NCBI GenBank assembly: GCA_963665095.1
Contig: OY762069.1
Location: forward strand, 1,152,001-1,216,000
Origin: an uncultured Desulfobacter sp.
Lineage (GTDB): Bacteria > Desulfobacterota > Desulfobacteria > Desulfobacterales > Desulfobacteraceae
DNA length: 64,000 nt
Reading direction: 5' to 3'
In this document: piece after piece, positions 58,280-64,000 of the stretch
Position numbering within the stretch: position 1 is the first letter of the stretch
Layout: every line of letters starts with the position of its first letter
Made by a program: the position numbers and the translations under genes
The notes under the pieces: model-generated
Seen by the model: the letters and a program-made list of their open reading frames with translations, nothing else
Told to the model about the DNA's origin: nothing
Database searches by the model: none

Positions 58280-58646
58280 ACGTATTCCCTGTTCATTTTG
58301 GATCCGGAAAGGAAGTGCCTTTTATCTTGATTCATCATAATGGCTAATGGTTAAAGTATCAATACCGGATGATGCTATCATCGAAGAATGTTATCGCAAC
58401 CTGTGACACTGTGAATGACAATTTCTAACACAACGCACCAATATTTCCCATTGATTCAAGCCGATTTTTGGGATAGAAGATGTGTAATCCTTAATGCGGG
58501 CACGAAGCCTGTGATTCAGACAAATTTTATCTGGTATCAATCCATGAAGGCTACAATGGCGATGTTTAACTGTAAGGTGGCAACACCTTTTGTTTGATTT
58601 TTAAGAGCCTCTATCATCTTTAAGGAATTGAAGGAGAAAATCAGTT

Positions 58647-59426
58647 ATGAAAAAATTAATTATTGCATCAGGCTTCCTGTTTCTGGGAGTGATTCTTTGC
58701 GCAGCAACTGTTCAGGCCCATTACGGTATGGTGATTCCTTCGGACAATATGGTTATGGAGAATGATGACCGCACTGTTCATATCACCGCCTCTTTTTCCC
58801 ATCCCTTTGAAGGGGTAGGCATGGAGCTTGTCACACCCAAAGTATTTGCTGTTAAAGCCAACGGCAAAGTTCAGGATCTCTTAGGCACCCTTGCACAGAT
58901 AAAAGTGATGGGGCACACTGCCTGGAAAACCGATTACAAATTTACAAGGCCCGGCGTTTACATGTTCTATATGGAACCCAAACCCTATTGGGAACCTGCC
59001 GAAGACTGCTTTATCATTCATTTCACCAAAACTGTTGTCACAGCGTTTGGCGATGACGAGGGCTGGGATGAAGAAATTGGACTTAAAACTGAAATCGTGC
59101 CGCTTTCCAAGCCCTTTGCCCAGTACGCCGGCAACGTGTTCCAGGGAATTGTGAAACTGGACGGCCAGCCAGTCCCCTTTGCCGAGGTAGAGGTGGAATA
59201 TTATAATGAAGACGGGAAATCTGAAGCACCTACAGATTATATGGTTACCCAGACCATCAAGGCCGATGCCAACGGCATATTTACCTATGCCGCTCCCAAA
59301 GCCGGATGGTGGGGATTTGCCGCGCTGAATGAAGCAGATTTTACCCTGAAAATCGACGGTCAGGATAAGGGTGTTGAGCTTGGCGCTGTCATCTGGGTGT
59401 TATTCGAAGACTGGAAAACCAAATAG
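58647..59426 (+). CDS. DUF4198 periplasmic protein (NikM-domain/Co-Ni uptake associated)
   Basis: Signal peptide with His right after the cleavage site (AHYGMVIPS), [27 protein letters not shown]; first gene of the cbiM operon. Confidence 0.85.
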
Positions 59427-59541
59427 TGTCTGAACGGCTTGATAGGTTGCTTTAACAAATTGCAATCCTCTCATACTGAAAGTATGCGCCGGTTGCAATT
59501 TGTCCTACGCCCTGCAGCTGGGTACCTTTTCGTCCAAACAC
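59426..59541. mobile_element. MITE-like nested-hairpin intergenic element
   Basis: Imperfect termini GTGTCTGAACG/CGTCCAAACAC (9/11); inner perfect stems ACAAATTGCAA/TTGCAATTTGT and CATACT-gaa-AGTATG. Confidence 0.5.
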
Positions 59542-59629
59542 ACCACCCTGGAAAGTAAAATTTTTATTGTGCGCTAAGGGTCTGATGGAAATTTTCCTGT
59601 CAGGCCCTATGGCGAACTAAGAAGGTGTT

Positions 59630-60274
59630 ATGCATATTTCCGAAGGCATTCTTTCTGCGCCGGTTTTGGGTACCGGAATGGCGCTGGCAGTGGCCGGGAC
59701 CGCCATTGGTCTAAAAACCCTTAAAGAGGACAAAATTCCCCAGGCAGCCATTCTGTCTGCGGCATTTTTTGTGGCCTCCCTGATCCATGTGCCCATCGGG
59801 CCTTCGTCCACGCATCTGATCCTTAACGGCATCCTTGGCCTGATGCTTGGCTGGGCCGCTTTCCCTTGCATACTCATTGCCCTGCTGCTGCAGGGTGTGC
59901 TGTTTCAATTCGGAGGCATCACCACCTTAGGTGTTAATACAGTCAATGTTGCCCTGCCTGCGGTACTGTGTTACTACGTGTTTGCACGGTTTATCCACAG
60001 ACAGGGGGCTGCGGCCTTTATTGCCGCCTTTACCTGTGGATTTTTAAGTGTATTTCTAACTGCCATCCTTGTGGGCGTATCCCTCATGTTTACCCAGGAA
60101 AGCTTTCTTGAAGTGTCTGTGGCGGTTGTTGTGGCCCATATTCCAGTGATGATCATTGAAGGATTTGTGACAGGATTCTGCGTCAGCTTTCTTAAAAAAG
60201 TTCAGCCGGAACTTCTGCCCCAGTGGCATGGTGTAAAAGGGCATACTGTCAAAGAGTCAGGGACCGTTTCCTGA
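59630..60274 (+). CDS. cbiM: Co/Ni ECF transporter S component
   Basis: N-terminal MHISEG metal-binding motif, HLILNG, LQGVLFQFGGITTLGVN, IEG. Confidence 0.93.
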   Translation: MHISEGILSAPVLGTGMALAVAGTAIGLKTLKEDKIPQAAILSAAFFVASLIHVPIGPSSTHLILNGILGLMLGWAAFPCILIALLLQGVLFQFGGITTLGVNTVNVALPAVLCYYVFARFIHRQGAAAFIAAFTCGFLSVFLTAILVGVSLMFTQESFLEVSVAVVVAHIPVMIIEGFVTGFCVSFLKKVQPELLPQWHGVKGHTVKESGTVS

Positions 60275-60316
60275 TATTTTATCTCCTTATCTCTTAATTT
60301 TAAATGGTTACCTATA

Positions 60317-60955
60317 ATGAGACGAAAATTATATTTATTGGTATTTTCATGCTGTATGATGCTTTGTCTTCTTTTCACCGGCACGGCCCTGGCTCACAAA
60401 GTCACAGTATTTGCCTGGGTGGAAGGCAATGTGATTTACGGGGAAAGCAAGTTCAGCGGTGGTAAAAAGGCCCGGAATGCGGACGTCATTGTCTGGGATG
60501 AAAGCGGCAGGGAGCTGATGCGGACCAAGACTGACGACAATGGGGAATTTTCATTTCCCGTACCCCAGAAAACCGCCATGCGTATTGAACTTCTTGCGGG
60601 CATGGGACACAAGGCGGACTGGACTATTCCCCTGGAAGATGTCAAGGACGTGGATATTGCAGAATCTGTGGCAAATGAGCCCCCCCCTTCGGCCTCAACA
60701 GATACGGCTGACCAGGAAAAAACACAGGCGGCAGTGCCCCGGGCATCTGTTCCTGCCGGCATAAACCAGGCCCAGCTTGAGGCTATTGTGGAGAAGGCCG
60801 TATCAAGCGCTTTAAGCAAAAAAATTTCCCCGCTGACAAAAATGGTGGCGGATCTGAAGCAGGATGGGCCCACCGTGAATGACATCATGGGCGGCATCGG
60901 CTACATTTTCGGACTGATGGGTGTGGCCATGTACTTTAAATCAAAAAAAAGATAA
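60317..60955 (+). CDS. CbiL/NikL-like auxiliary component
   Basis: Signal peptide, AHKVTVFAW, TDDNGEFSF, AGMGH, C-terminal TM GGIGYIFGL; lies between cbiM and cbiQ. Confidence 0.75.
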   Translation: MRRKLYLLVFSCCMMLCLLFTGTALAHKVTVFAWVEGNVIYGESKFSGGKKARNADVIVWDESGRELMRTKTDDNGEFSFPVPQKTAMRIELLAGMGHKADWTIPLEDVKDVDIAESVANEPPPSASTDTADQEKTQAAVPRASVPAGINQAQLEAIVEKAVSSALSKKISPLTKMVADLKQDGPTVNDIMGGIGYIFGLMGVAMYFKSKKR

Positions 60956-60971
60956 AAACGGCCAGGGTATC

Positions 60972-61730
60972 ATGATTGAAGAGCCCTTTGCTGCAGGCAG
61001 TTCCTTTATCCACAGGCTTGATCCCCGGTGCCGGGTGATGGTGGCGACCCTTTTGTGCTTTGTGGTTGCCTTGAGCCAAAAGCTGCCCACGCTCTGGGCG
61101 GGCCTTGGACTGGCAATTCTTCTGGTGGTCCTGGCCTGGCTCAATCCCGGGCAGGTGATCCGGCGGATACTGGTTATCTGGACTTTTCTTTTGTTTTTAT
61201 GGGCCATTCTGCCCTTTACCTATAAGGGCGACGTGGTCTTTCAAATCGGCGGGTTCGGCATGACCCGGCAGGGTATTGATCTCTGCATTGCCATCAGCCT
61301 GAAGTCAAATACCATTCTCCTTGTTTTTATTGCGCTTGTCACCACCATGGATTTCAGCACCCTGGGATATGTGCTTAATTTTTTCCACATGCCGGAAAAG
61401 CTGGTCCATCTGCTGCTGTTAACCTACCGGTATATCTTTGTGATTGATCAGGAGTACCGGCGGCTGATCCGGGCAGCCCGGCTCAGAAGCTTTGAGCCGA
61501 AAACCAACCTGCACACCTACCAGACCTATGCCTATCTTTGCGGGATGCTCTTTGTTCGGGCCTCGGCAAGGGCCCAGCGCGTTTACAACGCCATGAAATG
61601 CCGGGGCTTTTCAGGCCGGTTTCACTGCCTGCGGGAATTCAGTCTGGACCGGACAGACATTGTCTGGACAGTCATCGCTCTTACAGCGGTAACAGGCCTG
61701 GTCATTATGGAGGTAACACCCATTCTATGA
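60972..61730 (+). CDS. cbiQ: ECF transporter T component
   Basis: HRLDPR, TYRYI, ARLR, AMKCRGF. Confidence 0.92.
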   Translation: MIEEPFAAGSSFIHRLDPRCRVMVATLLCFVVALSQKLPTLWAGLGLAILLVVLAWLNPGQVIRRILVIWTFLLFLWAILPFTYKGDVVFQIGGFGMTRQGIDLCIAISLKSNTILLVFIALVTTMDFSTLGYVLNFFHMPEKLVHLLLLTYRYIFVIDQEYRRLIRAARLRSFEPKTNLHTYQTYAYLCGMLFVRASARAQRVYNAMKCRGFSGRFHCLREFSLDRTDIVWTVIALTAVTGLVIMEVTPIL

Positions 61731-62443
61731 TACAAAACACGTCAATACTGCACCTGGAAAACGTAAGCTTCAGCTACCCTGGACGCGGCCGGGTACTCAA
61801 TAATGTCTGCCTGACCGTCAATAGGGGGGACCGCATCGGCCTGGTCGGCCCCAACGGCAGCGGGAAAACCACATTGTTTCACATCATCATGGGTCTTTTA
61901 AAGCCCACCTCCGGCACCATTGAATTTTTCGGCGCCCCGGTTAAGACAGATAAGGATTTCAGGCAGGTTTACAAAAAAGTAGGATTGCTGTTCCAGGATT
62001 CCGATGACCAGCTTTTCAGCCCAACAGTGATAGAAGATGTGGCCTTTGGCCCGCTGAATCTGGGGAAATCAAAATCTGATGCAGGGAATATTGCAAGAAT
62101 GACCCTGGACCGGCTGGGCATTGGGGATTTTGCCCAGCGGATCACCCACAAGCTCTCGGGTGGGGAGAAGCGACTGGTGGCCCTGGCAGCCGTACTTTCC
62201 ATGAAACCGGAGCTGGTGCTGCTGGACGAACCCAGCACCGGTCTGGATGAAAAAACAAAAGAAATTCTGGTGGATGTGTTGAACCGTCTGGAACTATCCT
62301 ATATCCTGATCTCACATGAAAGTGATTTCATGTCCCGGATTGTGAACACCATATATACGATGGAGGATGGTACCCCCCAGAAGGACACTCATATCCATCA
62401 ATACAAACATACGCACCCAAACCCGATGCAACATCATGAGTAG
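61727..62443 (+). CDS. cbiO: ECF transporter ATPase with His-rich tail
   Basis: GPNGSGKTT, FQDSDDQLFSPTV.EDVAFGP, LSGGEKR, LLDEP. Confidence 0.92.
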   Translation: MIQNTSILHLENVSFSYPGRGRVLNNVCLTVNRGDRIGLVGPNGSGKTTLFHIIMGLLKPTSGTIEFFGAPVKTDKDFRQVYKKVGLLFQDSDDQLFSPTVIEDVAFGPLNLGKSKSDAGNIARMTLDRLGIGDFAQRITHKLSGGEKRLVALAAVLSMKPELVLLDEPSTGLDEKTKEILVDVLNRLELSYILISHESDFMSRIVNTIYTMEDGTPQKDTHIHQYKHTHPNPMQHHE

Positions 62444-62446
62444 CCT

Positions 62447-63373
62447 ATGCATGACATAAATTTTTTTCACGAACATGAGCTCAAAGAGCATGACTTTTTA
62501 GGCTGCTGCAAGGACTGCCAGAGGAGCCTGGCCATTATTAAGCCATTAATTCTGGGCTTTGCCGATAATATCGGACACTACTCCTATGAGCAGCTTTCAG
62601 AACTTCCGCCCGAAGAGCTGTATCGGCTCTATCAACTCCTGGATGATCTCGCCCACATGGATGCAGGGCCGCATCTTGCCGGCATGCTGCTGGAGGAAAA
62701 AGAGATCCGAGAAGTACTGCTCCTGATCCGCTCATACTACACGGCTTTTTTCAGCATTCACGAACGGCACCTGGCAAAGGAGCTCTTGGCAAGCCCGGAT
62801 CCCTGGAAGCAGATTGAAACCTTTCCTTTGTATCCCCGGTACGAAGCCCTGGTGAAAAACCAGATTCAGGCCATGCATATATCCAGTGAAAAACGACTGG
62901 CGTTTTTAGGTTCCGGTCCCGTACCCCTGACCCTGATTCTTCTGAACCGCTTTTTTAATATTCCGTCGGTGGGTATTGACAGTGATGGAGAAACTGTAGC
63001 GATTTCCAGGAAAATCATTGGCCATCTGGGCCTTGAAAATGACATCGACATTGTCCAGGGAGATGATGCCACTCTCGGGGATCTGGCCTGGGATGTGGTC
63101 CTGGTGGCGGCTCTTGCCGAACCAAAGGCACGGATTTTCTCCCAGCTGCGCAACATCCTGGCCATACGGGGCCCGGCCCCGGTGGTGTTCCGCACCTATA
63201 CAGGTATGAGAGCAGTACTGTACAAGCCAGTTCAGCCTGAAGATATCAAAGGGTTTAAAATTGTCCAGGCGATTCAGCCCACAGGCCGGGTTAATAACAC
63301 CACGGTTTTCATGCAGCTCCAGGAAAACAAACCCCATAAATTCTTAAGCAAACCTGAATTCGATGACTCCTGA
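62447..63373 (+). CDS. Nicotianamine synthase family protein (copy 1)
   Basis: PW..IETFPLYPRYE.L, AFLGSGPVPLT, DVVLVAALAEPK, RTYTGMRAVLY.PV, VNNT are NAS-family motifs. Confidence 0.9.
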   Translation: MHDINFFHEHELKEHDFLGCCKDCQRSLAIIKPLILGFADNIGHYSYEQLSELPPEELYRLYQLLDDLAHMDAGPHLAGMLLEEKEIREVLLLIRSYYTAFFSIHERHLAKELLASPDPWKQIETFPLYPRYEALVKNQIQAMHISSEKRLAFLGSGPVPLTLILLNRFFNIPSVGIDSDGETVAISRKIIGHLGLENDIDIVQGDDATLGDLAWDVVLVAALAEPKARIFSQLRNILAIRGPAPVVFRTYTGMRAVLYKPVQPEDIKGFKIVQAIQPTGRVNNTTVFMQLQENKPHKFLSKPEFDDS

Positions 63374-64000
63374 CCAGATCAAAAAAGAATTTCTTGAAAT
63401 CTATGACACCCTGGCCCCCATAACGGTCCAGGATGTTCTTGAGGGCAGGCACCAGGAGGCATACCCCTGTTTTGACCGGCTTGACCAGATGGCGGTCATA
63501 AATATGGACGACCATACAGCCGAACGTCTGCGCACCAATGCCGAACTCTTTCCGGTACTTGAGCATATCTCCCGGCTGAAACGGACCAACGGCCTTCGCC
63601 TGGAGATCCGCAATGCAAAAATCGTTATTAATTCAGCCACCCCCTGGGAAACCGTCAAACAGTTTGTGTACTACCCCAACTATCTGGAACTTGCCCGCAT
63701 GGAGTACACCGGCGGCCATCTTTCTCCCGGAGACAGGGTAGTTTTTTTAGGCTCCGGCCCCATGCCGCTGACCCTGATCTGCCTTTGCACCCGGTATAAC
63801 ATTATAGGCATCGGTATTGAACAGTTCAAAGAGTACGCCCAGTTATCACGCCAGCTGATCCAGGCCCTGGATCTGAGCAACAAAATCCAGATCATTCAAG
63901 GCAACCACTTCTGCCTTCCCCTGTCCGATCCCTGTAAGCTTATTATGATCGGCGCAGACGCCCTGCCCAAAGATGAAATATTTGCCCATCTGTCAGCCAG
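63363..64000 (+). CDS. Nicotianamine synthase family protein (copy 2), truncated by window end
   Basis: Manual translation from ATG 63363 is open to the window end: MTPDQIKKEF...GLRLE...PWETVKQFVYYPNYLELARME...RVVFLGSGPMPLT...PKDEIF; absent from the ORF track. Confidence 0.9.
   Translation, partial: MTPDQIKKEFLEIYDTLAPITVQDVLEGRHQEAYPCFDRLDQMAVINMDDHTAERLRTNAELFPVLEHISRLKRTNGLRLEIRNAKIVINSATPWETVKQFVYYPNYLELARMEYTGGHLSPGDRVVFLGSGPMPLTLICLCTRYNIIGIGIEQFKEYAQLSRQLIQALDLSNKIQIIQGNHFCLPLSDPCKLIMIGADALPKDEIFAHLSA

Follow-up and report, generated by a model that had tools for sequence, protein, structure and literature searches.

A nicotianamine-synthase-like gene pair behind a NikKMLQO-type transporter in a Desulfobacter, and its possible role in making a nickel chelator

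Background

Enzymes of the nicotianamine synthase (NAS) family are described from plants and fungi, from Methanothermobacter thermautotrophicus, whose thermonicotianamine synthase MtNAS (PDB 3FPE, 3FPG, 3FPJ, 3O31) carries out both transfers onto glutamate as one enzyme (according to part of PMC10491745), and from the Cnt systems (staphylopine, pseudopaline, yersinopine, bacillopaline). Among metal transporters, NikK and NikL serve as markers of nickel uptake, K and L without N pointing to nickel (passages of PMC545781 and PMC2667541), and the gene order nikKMLQO is given for Desulfovibrio desulfuricans in the former. Here we describe two tandem NAS-family genes, NAS1 and NAS2, which follow the genes of a NikKMLQO-type energy-coupling factor (ECF) transporter at the end of a 64,000-nucleotide stretch (the window) of the single-contig genome of an uncultured Desulfobacter sp. 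(contig OY762069.1, positions 1,152,001 to 1,216,000; coordinates below are those of the window unless prefixed C1, which marks genome positions). Hydrogenases, CO dehydrogenase and coenzyme F430 give sulfate reducers and methane-cycling archaea a high demand for nickel, which sulfide removes from their surroundings; a nickel-binding product would aid the nickel supply of anaerobes in sulfide-rich sediment. To our knowledge the physiological role of archaeal-type NAS has had no genetic context until now, and the cassette described here supplies one.

Results and discussion

Two NAS-family proteins close to MtNAS

We propose that the NAS pair makes a nickel-scavenging, thermonicotianamine-like chelator which is released by the cell, a reading that we regard as evenly poised when taken whole; that the pair belongs to a chelator pathway of some kind is very probable, and nickel is probably the metal. 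The seven open reading frames nikK-nikM-nikL-nikQ-nikO-NAS1-NAS2 all lie on the + strand, in the order and at the positions that the original prediction gave them (open reading frame check, Pfam and NCBIfam), and the tight coupling described there is exact: three nucleotides separate the TAG of nikO from the ATG of NAS1, and the ATG of NAS2 lies 11 nt inside the 3' end of NAS1. NAS1 (62447..63373, + strand) encodes 308 amino acids and NAS2 (63363..64000 and on to 64184, C1:1216184, + strand) 273, so that the last gene of the operon stops 184 nt beyond the window edge; the next long reading frame is on the opposite strand and encodes an NrfD-family membrane subunit of a cytochrome c/molybdopterin/Fe-S complex.

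Both proteins carry the NAS motifs noted earlier and match the NAS profile PF03059 at 100.9 (NAS1) and 92.6 bits (NAS2) against a curated cut-off of 27.1 bits, with no other Pfam match, and the genome has no NAS match besides these two. The best sequence match of both is MtNAS (3FPE; E 5e-44 for NAS1 and 5e-29 for NAS2). Predicted models (pLDDT 89.6 and 93.0 respectively) superimpose on 3FPE with an rmsd of 1.9 Å and a TM-score of 0.91 of the target, with a helical N-domain and a Rossmann domain as in MtNAS, and a structure search puts MtNAS first (E 2e-22 and 2.5e-20). The catalytic Glu/Tyr pair, E81/Y107 in MtNAS (part of PMC10491745), is kept as E106/Y132 in NAS1 and E81/Y107 in NAS2, and in all 23 aligned NAS1/NAS2 rows. 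That these might be ordinary methyltransferases, with an incidental place beside the transporter, is hardly credible: some homologues are labelled "methyltransferase" and the C-terminal domain has the Rossmann methyltransferase fold, but PF03059 is the sole Pfam match and the best methyltransferases in the structure search follow MtNAS at 6e-8 and 3e-9 with TM-scores below 0.5.

By sequence and by predicted model both proteins are nearer MtNAS than CntL, as the original prediction had suggested for NAS1 from its motifs. CntL structures fit the models at 3.9-8.8 Å only, and the CntL model NF033601 scores 34.8 (NAS1) and 24.9 bits (NAS2) against a cut-off of 350, so neither is a CntL equivalog. 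In a FastTree phylogeny of 162 rows, NAS1 and NAS2 form separate clades (SH-like support 98 each) within a branch that includes a Methanosphaera NAS (support 100); the predicted grouping with methanogen enzymes was thus recovered, in a tree which holds no MtNAS or true CntL row and does not place CntL, as none of the 51 scanned members reaches the CntL cut-off.

With plant and fungal NAS the pair has the family, the fold and the catalytic Glu/Tyr in common (E77/Y106 in AtNAS1), but Glu73 of AtNAS1, which is required for nicotianamine synthesis (both from an excerpt of PMC10248798), is Phe in NAS1 and Gly in NAS2 when the position is mapped by spacing from the catalytic Glu, and the plant VGMD motif is absent, reading ALAE in NAS1 and DALP in NAS2. 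Like the Cnt systems, the locus sets a NAS fold in a metal-uptake context and the genome offers a possible racemase-like partner, a TonB receptor and Nik/Opp-type ABC import genes; unlike them, it has two NAS genes rather than one, no cntM or cntK beside the pair and no recurring MFS or EamA exporter. The operon unit, including the part beyond position 64000, holds no cntK, cntM or exporter gene, which bears out the earlier remark that cntK and cntM were not visible, and no CntM gene was found beside the pair in this genome or among the neighbours scanned in other loci. A genome search with PF10100 was blank, as was its control, and a lone PF02317 gene considered as cntM was rejected, being 1 Mb away in another context. 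The chemistry, as judged from sequence, is most like that of MtNAS and the context most like that of Cnt, but the pair falls in neither the Cnt nor the plant NAS class. A single contig encodes a 2670-aa protein (P0271) that has an MFS domain as well as two NAS domains, possibly a mis-called eukaryotic gene or a fusion.

Differences between NAS1 and NAS2

Whereas MtNAS is one enzyme, here there are two paralogues in a fixed order, about 32% identical. NAS1 has the MtNAS motifs VAALAEPK, RTYTGMRAxLY and VNNT and Tyr73. At MtNAS positions 73 and 77, which lie in the chamber-lining region (part of PMC10248798), NAS1 has Tyr and Phe and NAS2 has Lys and Gly, and on the acceptor side the motif RTYTGMRAxLY of NAS1 corresponds to RIYEKGLRRLxD in NAS2. 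The pocket motifs of NAS1 are thus like those of MtNAS and those of NAS2 unlike them, in a comparison of sequences from which the substrate cannot be read. Features beyond MtNAS are the Lys73 and RIYEKGLRRLxD of NAS2, an N-terminal His/CCxxC extension of NAS1, the pyridoxal phosphate (PLP) enzyme described below and the nickel-uptake setting.

The extension (residues 1-24; 62447..62518, + strand) is rich in His and Glu and is a candidate metal-binding site; NAS1 starts M-H-D-I-N-x-x-H-E-H-E-L-x-x-H-D-F-L-G-C-C-K-D-C. CCxxC occurs in 67 of 72 distinct NAS1 sequences, many of them kin, and in 0 of 99 NAS2 sequences, and the extension is absent from the methanogen NAS rows. The NAS1 model has low confidence at residues 1-20 (pLDDT 53-64), and a database search with the N-terminus returned no match. 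The tail may bind metal.

The transporter and its metal

The five upstream genes are nikK (DUF4198; 58647..59426; PF10670, E 7e-63), encoding an exported accessory subunit; nikM/cbiM (59630..60274; PF01891, NF004905), encoding the ECF substrate-binding S component, which begins Met-His; nikL (60317..60955; NF058648, 190.6 bits, cut-off 100), encoding a second accessory subunit; nikQ/cbiQ (60972..61730; PF02361, TIGR02454), the T component; and nikO/cbiO (61727..62443; PF00005), the ATPase, whose translation ends in a His-rich tail. The original prediction had labelled this a CbiMNQO-type transporter. Because NikK and NikL are present it is, by sequence, of the NikKMLQO type instead: that type is defined by a core of M, Q and O in which K and L replace N, Ni(II) transport is predicted from it, the Pfam and NCBIfam profiles gave no CbiN match among the operon proteins, and the five genes stand in the described order. 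The His-rich C-terminus of NikO (62380-62440) reads HIHQYKHTHPNPMQHHE and may be a metal-binding segment. A second nikK-like gene (39% identical) lies at C1:547347-548159, after feoB and before an ABC-type unit.

The earlier suggestion of nickel or cobalt as the target can be narrowed, since NikK/NikL, the lack of a B12 riboswitch at the operon and the cfbA gene adjoining archaeal homologues (below) make nickel the more likely metal. No Rfam family matched at its gathering score anywhere in the window, and thus no B12 riboswitch is at the operon, while 14 cobalamin riboswitches occur elsewhere in the genome; nikM is the genome's sole CbiM-family gene. Against nickel, a few NikKMLQO systems are cobalt-linked (part of PMC2667541). 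The locus differs from typical NikKMLQO systems in its two added NAS genes and in that NikR and a NikR box were not found, a GAA-hairpin leader standing there instead: the genome search for NikR (PF08753) was negative where its control was positive in 5 of 14 genomes, and no NikR box was seen upstream of the operon within two mismatches. NikR control of NikKMLQO is typical, not universal.

In the sampled genomes of the family, nikM is far commoner (112 of 151) than NAS above cut-off (16 of 151), so the NAS pair is an add-on and the transporter is independent of it; as NikKMLQO is usually present without NAS, it is improbable that this transporter imports the chelate.

Conservation of the pair and its neighbours

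Besides the 16 family genomes, NAS genes were counted in 7 of 401 genomes of the phylum and 23 of 401 of the class (the family and class samples overlap, and a weak match in genome G093, E 2.8e-4 and below cut-off, was left out). We also used 86 further loci, made up of the best 80 of 177 metagenome matches and 6 phylum loci. Of the 69 further loci with room, 61 have NAS1 directly upstream of NAS2. The two genes overlap by 4 nt in 16 of 34 locus rows, a set in which some genomes appear more than once, and the pairwise identities of NAS1 and NAS2 are correlated (Spearman 0.79, 45 pairs, kin included). The nik genes are directly upstream of NAS in 8 of 15 NAS-positive relatives, all in two related genera, as five full operons, two nikKML sets and one nikO at a contig start; of the other relatives one has nik genes about 7 kb off, and four long regions and two short contigs have none. 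What is conserved is the NAS1-NAS2 pair rather than its link to the transporter, so of the predicted transporter-NAS-NAS synteny the pair stands while the link to the transporter mostly ends with the two genera. In loci L032 and L033 (G012, G028) nikK-nikM-nikL run directly into NAS1-NAS2-PLP without nikQ or nikO, and both genomes have a second nikM elsewhere. Locus L146 has a reversed NAS2-NAS1 order followed by FmdE, and a DUF3842 gene adjoins the pair in 9 of the 86 loci.

A metal-uptake-type neighbour is present in 19 of the 32 loci of at least 8 kb, compared with 13.5% of random 14-kb windows of this genome, which supports the metal-uptake context originally suggested. Several observations weigh against our proposal: the remaining 13 of these 32 loci have none of the metal-uptake neighbours searched for, no exporter recurs beside the pair in the neighbourhoods of the relatives and further loci, the pair is decaying in genomes G082 and G124, and kinship inflates all of the co-occurrence counts. 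An APC-family amino-acid permease, a candidate exporter or precursor importer, is near the pair in L110, L128, L140, L152 and L155.

These neighbourhoods bear on two other explanations. The first is that the chelator serves mainly cobalt, iron, zinc or several metals, the nik link being one lineage's regulatory convenience. NCBIfam calls the S component a cobalt transporter CbiM, direct nik adjacency is largely limited to two genera, DtxR-family, FecCD, chelatase-subunit and TonB genes are among the neighbours elsewhere, and known NAS-derived metallophores are broad-spectrum (part of PMC7438024). Nik links nevertheless occur outside the two genera (loci L105, L106 and L144) and archaeal homologues adjoin cfbA, the operon has no B12 riboswitch, and the presence behind such a leader (below) of an [FeFe]-hydrogenase, which is rich in iron, would suit a shortage of nickel and not of iron, so we consider this explanation distinctly unlikely. 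The second is that the aminocarboxypropyl group is moved onto something other than a chelator (a cofactor, a polyamine-like compound or a macromolecule), or that one paralogue is a non-productive regulatory partner. Aminocarboxypropyl transferases with non-metallophore products exist (part of PMC10491745), two fifths of the long loci (13/32) are without metal neighbours and NAS2 differs from MtNAS at the chamber positions, but the catalytic pair is kept in both proteins, the fold is that of MtNAS along the whole chain at 1.9 Å and the metal-uptake context recurs in bacteria and archaea, all of which makes it quite improbable.

Archaeal contigs with NAS2-type genes

Three archaeal contigs (L172, L173, L175) have two NAS2-type genes around a small chelatase gene, near a divergent nikK(-L-M-Q-O), and a fourth (L174) combines nikQ and nikO with two NAS2-type genes and a gene like nikK. 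The chelatase of L172, which also encodes aRF1, scores above the cut-off of the coenzyme F430 chelatase model CfbA (NF033198, 153 bits, cut-off 120). The archaeal NAS2-type proteins form their own clade on the NAS2 side of the tree (support 97). NikK/NikL-type subunits were not detected in archaea according to part of PMC2667541 and are present on these contigs. The contigs are a second, phylogenetically separate tie to nickel, and they also support the cytoplasmic alternative weighed in the next section. The arrangement of two NAS2-type genes and a cfbA-like gene was seen at L172:6312-8795, L173, L175 and L176.

A PLP enzyme and a second locus

Directly downstream of the pair in 36 of 72 loci is a gene for a PLP enzyme of 370 aa with a D-threonine-aldolase fold (domains PF01168 and PF14031, lysine motif HxKTHK). 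It was found in 12 of the 151 family genomes, all among the 16 NAS-positive ones, and in 17 of the 401 class genomes, all among the 23 NAS-positive ones; Fisher tests of this co-occurrence are extreme, with kin that are not independent. The NAS-positive family genomes without it are G076, G132, the decayed G082 and the incomplete G030, and the pair occurs without the PLP enzyme in two genomes that are fairly complete, which marks the enzyme as optional. A database search returned the family name only. Its relatives of fold-type III are D-threonine aldolase (4V15, 7DIB), the 3-hydroxy-D-aspartate aldolase BhcC (6QKB), D-threo-3-hydroxyaspartate dehydratase (3WQC) and D-serine dehydratase (3ANU), from all of which it is distant (E 1e-33 to 1e-17; BhcC model 133 bits, cut-off 690), and it has conserved motifs of its own (YLGHLYG, SAKQLL and RLHEEHGW). 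The C-terminal His-x-Asp/Cys positions, which we take to be metal ligands in enzymes of the D-threonine-aldolase/dehydratase fold, are Asn and Ala in the PLP enzyme (PSHVD/PNHA aligned to PVNMA).

In this genome the PLP orthologue is at C1:618801-619958, away from the pair, and is 58% identical to a NAS-linked copy. It is followed on the same strand by genes for a class I methyltransferase, a TonB-dependent receptor, a family-5 substrate-binding protein (SBP; C1:613759-615348), two ATPases and two permeases. Behind the PLP gene, the unit of TonB receptor and Nik/Opp-type ABC genes spans C1:610131-618464. The best NCBIfam matches of the ABC unit are nickel ABC models, below cut-off (SBP 269 versus 600; permease 342 versus 350). 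The order PLP enzyme, methyltransferase, TonB receptor, SBP is found in this genome and G112, and in G076 and G099 the unit is present but lacks the PLP gene; in locus L132 methyltransferase, SBP (54% identical) and ABC genes directly precede NAS1-NAS2, and members of the methyltransferase family adjoin the pair in five loci of NAS-positive relatives. The SBP occurs in 6 of 16 NAS-positive versus 3 of 135 NAS-negative genomes and the methyltransferase in 11 of 16 versus 7 of 135. That 10 of the 16 NAS-positive genomes have no SBP orthologue does not favour a role for it in retrieving the chelate.

The same chemistry could also serve a product that is kept in the cytoplasm, as a nickel buffer or a carrier from NikKMLQO to nickel-enzyme maturation, like nicotianamine in plants and fungi. 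There is no conserved exporter, the S component of the co-encoded ECF transporter itself binds the ion, the archaeal homologues flank the gene of a cytoplasmic nickel chelatase, and RcnA/NicO-family genes are near the pair in loci L037, L065 and L106. However, TonB receptors, TonB/ExbBD and the binding protein of a nickel-type ABC system repeatedly accompany the pair or lie close to it, and importer genes occur in NAS-less genomes too, as would be expected of a shared, secreted compound. We rate retention in the cytoplasm as rather unlikely.

A GAA-hairpin leader

Upstream of nikK are two small hairpins with loops ending in GAA, P1 (58496..58512, + strand, ACGAA loop) and P2 (58540..58552, + strand, ATGAA loop, a short stem with one mismatch), followed by a terminator-like hairpin and T-rich tail (58574..58603, + strand), which is a consensus match only (L001 2575-2590). 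Both GAA hairpins are present in 8 of 8 aligned nikK leaders, and P1 is paired in 97.6% of cells over 7 of them. The P2 core CCAnGAAGG is invariant in 16 leaders of this genome and has 30 intergenic copies in it, compared with 17, 9 and 8 for three permuted loops; about 8 of the 30 matches are in a repeated mobile element and others are without a terminator. Fifteen of the 30 copies, selected by eye, were kept, and these form the 5' arm of a terminator-like hairpin. The units downstream of the kept leaders include TonB receptors, metal-type ABC systems or ExbB in 12 of 15 cases, the remainder beginning with FmdE, DUF3842 and aspA-hydF, and one leader unit includes an [FeFe]-hydrogenase large subunit. 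The second locus, with the PLP, TonB and ABC genes, has a clear copy of the leader.

A NikR site precedes the Fe-only hydrogenase genes (hydAB) in Desulfovibrio, according to part of PMC545781, and because of this parallel we suggest that the leader set may be a nickel-shortage regulon. A number of findings speak against this. The nikK copy is weaker, P2 being imperfect, absent from the minimum-energy fold and without overlap with the terminator-like hairpin (z -1.16); across the 7 aligned leaders P1 has no change that affects both sides of its stem; a strict P2 leader is within 500 nt upstream of NAS1 in just 5 of 60 loci; and many leader units are of TonB/FecCD type and could serve iron or other metals. 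The terminator consensus has 11 sites versus 7.7 in shuffles. Rfam gave only chance snoRNA matches on the leader, and the "NiCo-AnGGAG" motif is not in the main text of PMC5737381. As for other dual-hairpin leaders, a search of the genome for an ANTAR protein was blank, with its control silent too. ANTAR leaders have hexaloops with A1 and G4, and this class was rejected as the loops here are of 4-5 nt ending in GAA.

Other leader copies were seen at L089 (C1:3015553-3018530), before an unknown 281-aa reading frame, [FeFe]-hydrogenase large and small subunit-like genes and a TonB receptor; at L090 (C1:3518768-3526300), before aspA-hydF, a NiFe-hydrogenase-like large subunit, a radical SAM protein and NifH/NifD-like genes; and at L097 (C1:2125564-2126112), where a DUF3842 gene has its own GAA leader. 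The repeated element carries the leader word CCACGAAGG beside reverse-transcriptase-like reading frames (C1:646501, 1625707, 2929010 and others) and inflates the motif counts.

Proposed pathway

Chelator synthesis, which the sequences suggest, would proceed by NAS1 and NAS2 acting in turn to move aminobutyrate from S-adenosylmethionine (SAM) onto an amino acid, yielding a polycarboxylate amine chelator. The MtNAS-like pocket of NAS1 would hold a glutamate-like acceptor, on which NAS1 would make the first C-N bond; the pocket of NAS2, being more basic, may suit an acceptor of greater negative charge, for instance the product of NAS1. By analogy with the staphylopine racemase CntK, in whose place it would stand, the PLP enzyme might supply or epimerise an amino-acid unit. 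The nickel chelate would re-enter through the TonB receptor and the Nik/Opp-type ABC transporter of the second locus, while NikKMLQO would import free nickel. The GAA-hairpin leader would turn on both units at nickel shortage, replacing NikR, and the His/Cys-rich N-terminus of NAS1 could bind metal and so may limit the use of SAM. The product is likely to be an undescribed small nickel-binding molecule. The fullest version, in which a secreted nickelophore is made by a two-NAS relay and a PLP-dependent stereochemical step, with autoregulation through the NAS1 tail, retrieval by TonB and Nik-ABC proteins and an uncatalogued nickel-responsive RNA attenuator, in sulfate reducers and as a variant in methanotroph- or methanogen-type archaea, is tentative and on the whole unlikely to hold in every element.

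If true, strict anaerobes would have a third NAS-metallophore architecture, in addition to plant nicotianamine and the Cnt opines. The cassette provides two enzymes, or three with the PLP enzyme, which are soluble and open to expression and assay, together with an SBP that may bind the chelate, an N-terminal tail that may sense metal and a leader from which the inducing metal can be predicted. Among the papers listed by our literature searches we found no account of NAS genes in sulfate reducers, although the review of cntL neighbourhoods by Laffont and Arnoux (2020) may mention such clusters, and term look-ups found no such NAS cassette in PMC11247825, PMC10617489, PMC3087415, PMC7438024 or bioRxiv 10.1101/641969.

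Sequence context of the operon

DNA contigs of three public runs, one of which is possibly the source itself, show no indel across 58300-64000. The GC3 of the seven operon genes is 0.51-0.66 (genome median 0.56), and their homologues carry the source names Desulfobacter, Desulfospira, Desulfonema and Desulfosarcina. Between nikK and nikM lies an 81-bp dispersed repeat (59461-59541) with 22 further matches in the genome at 73-81% identity.

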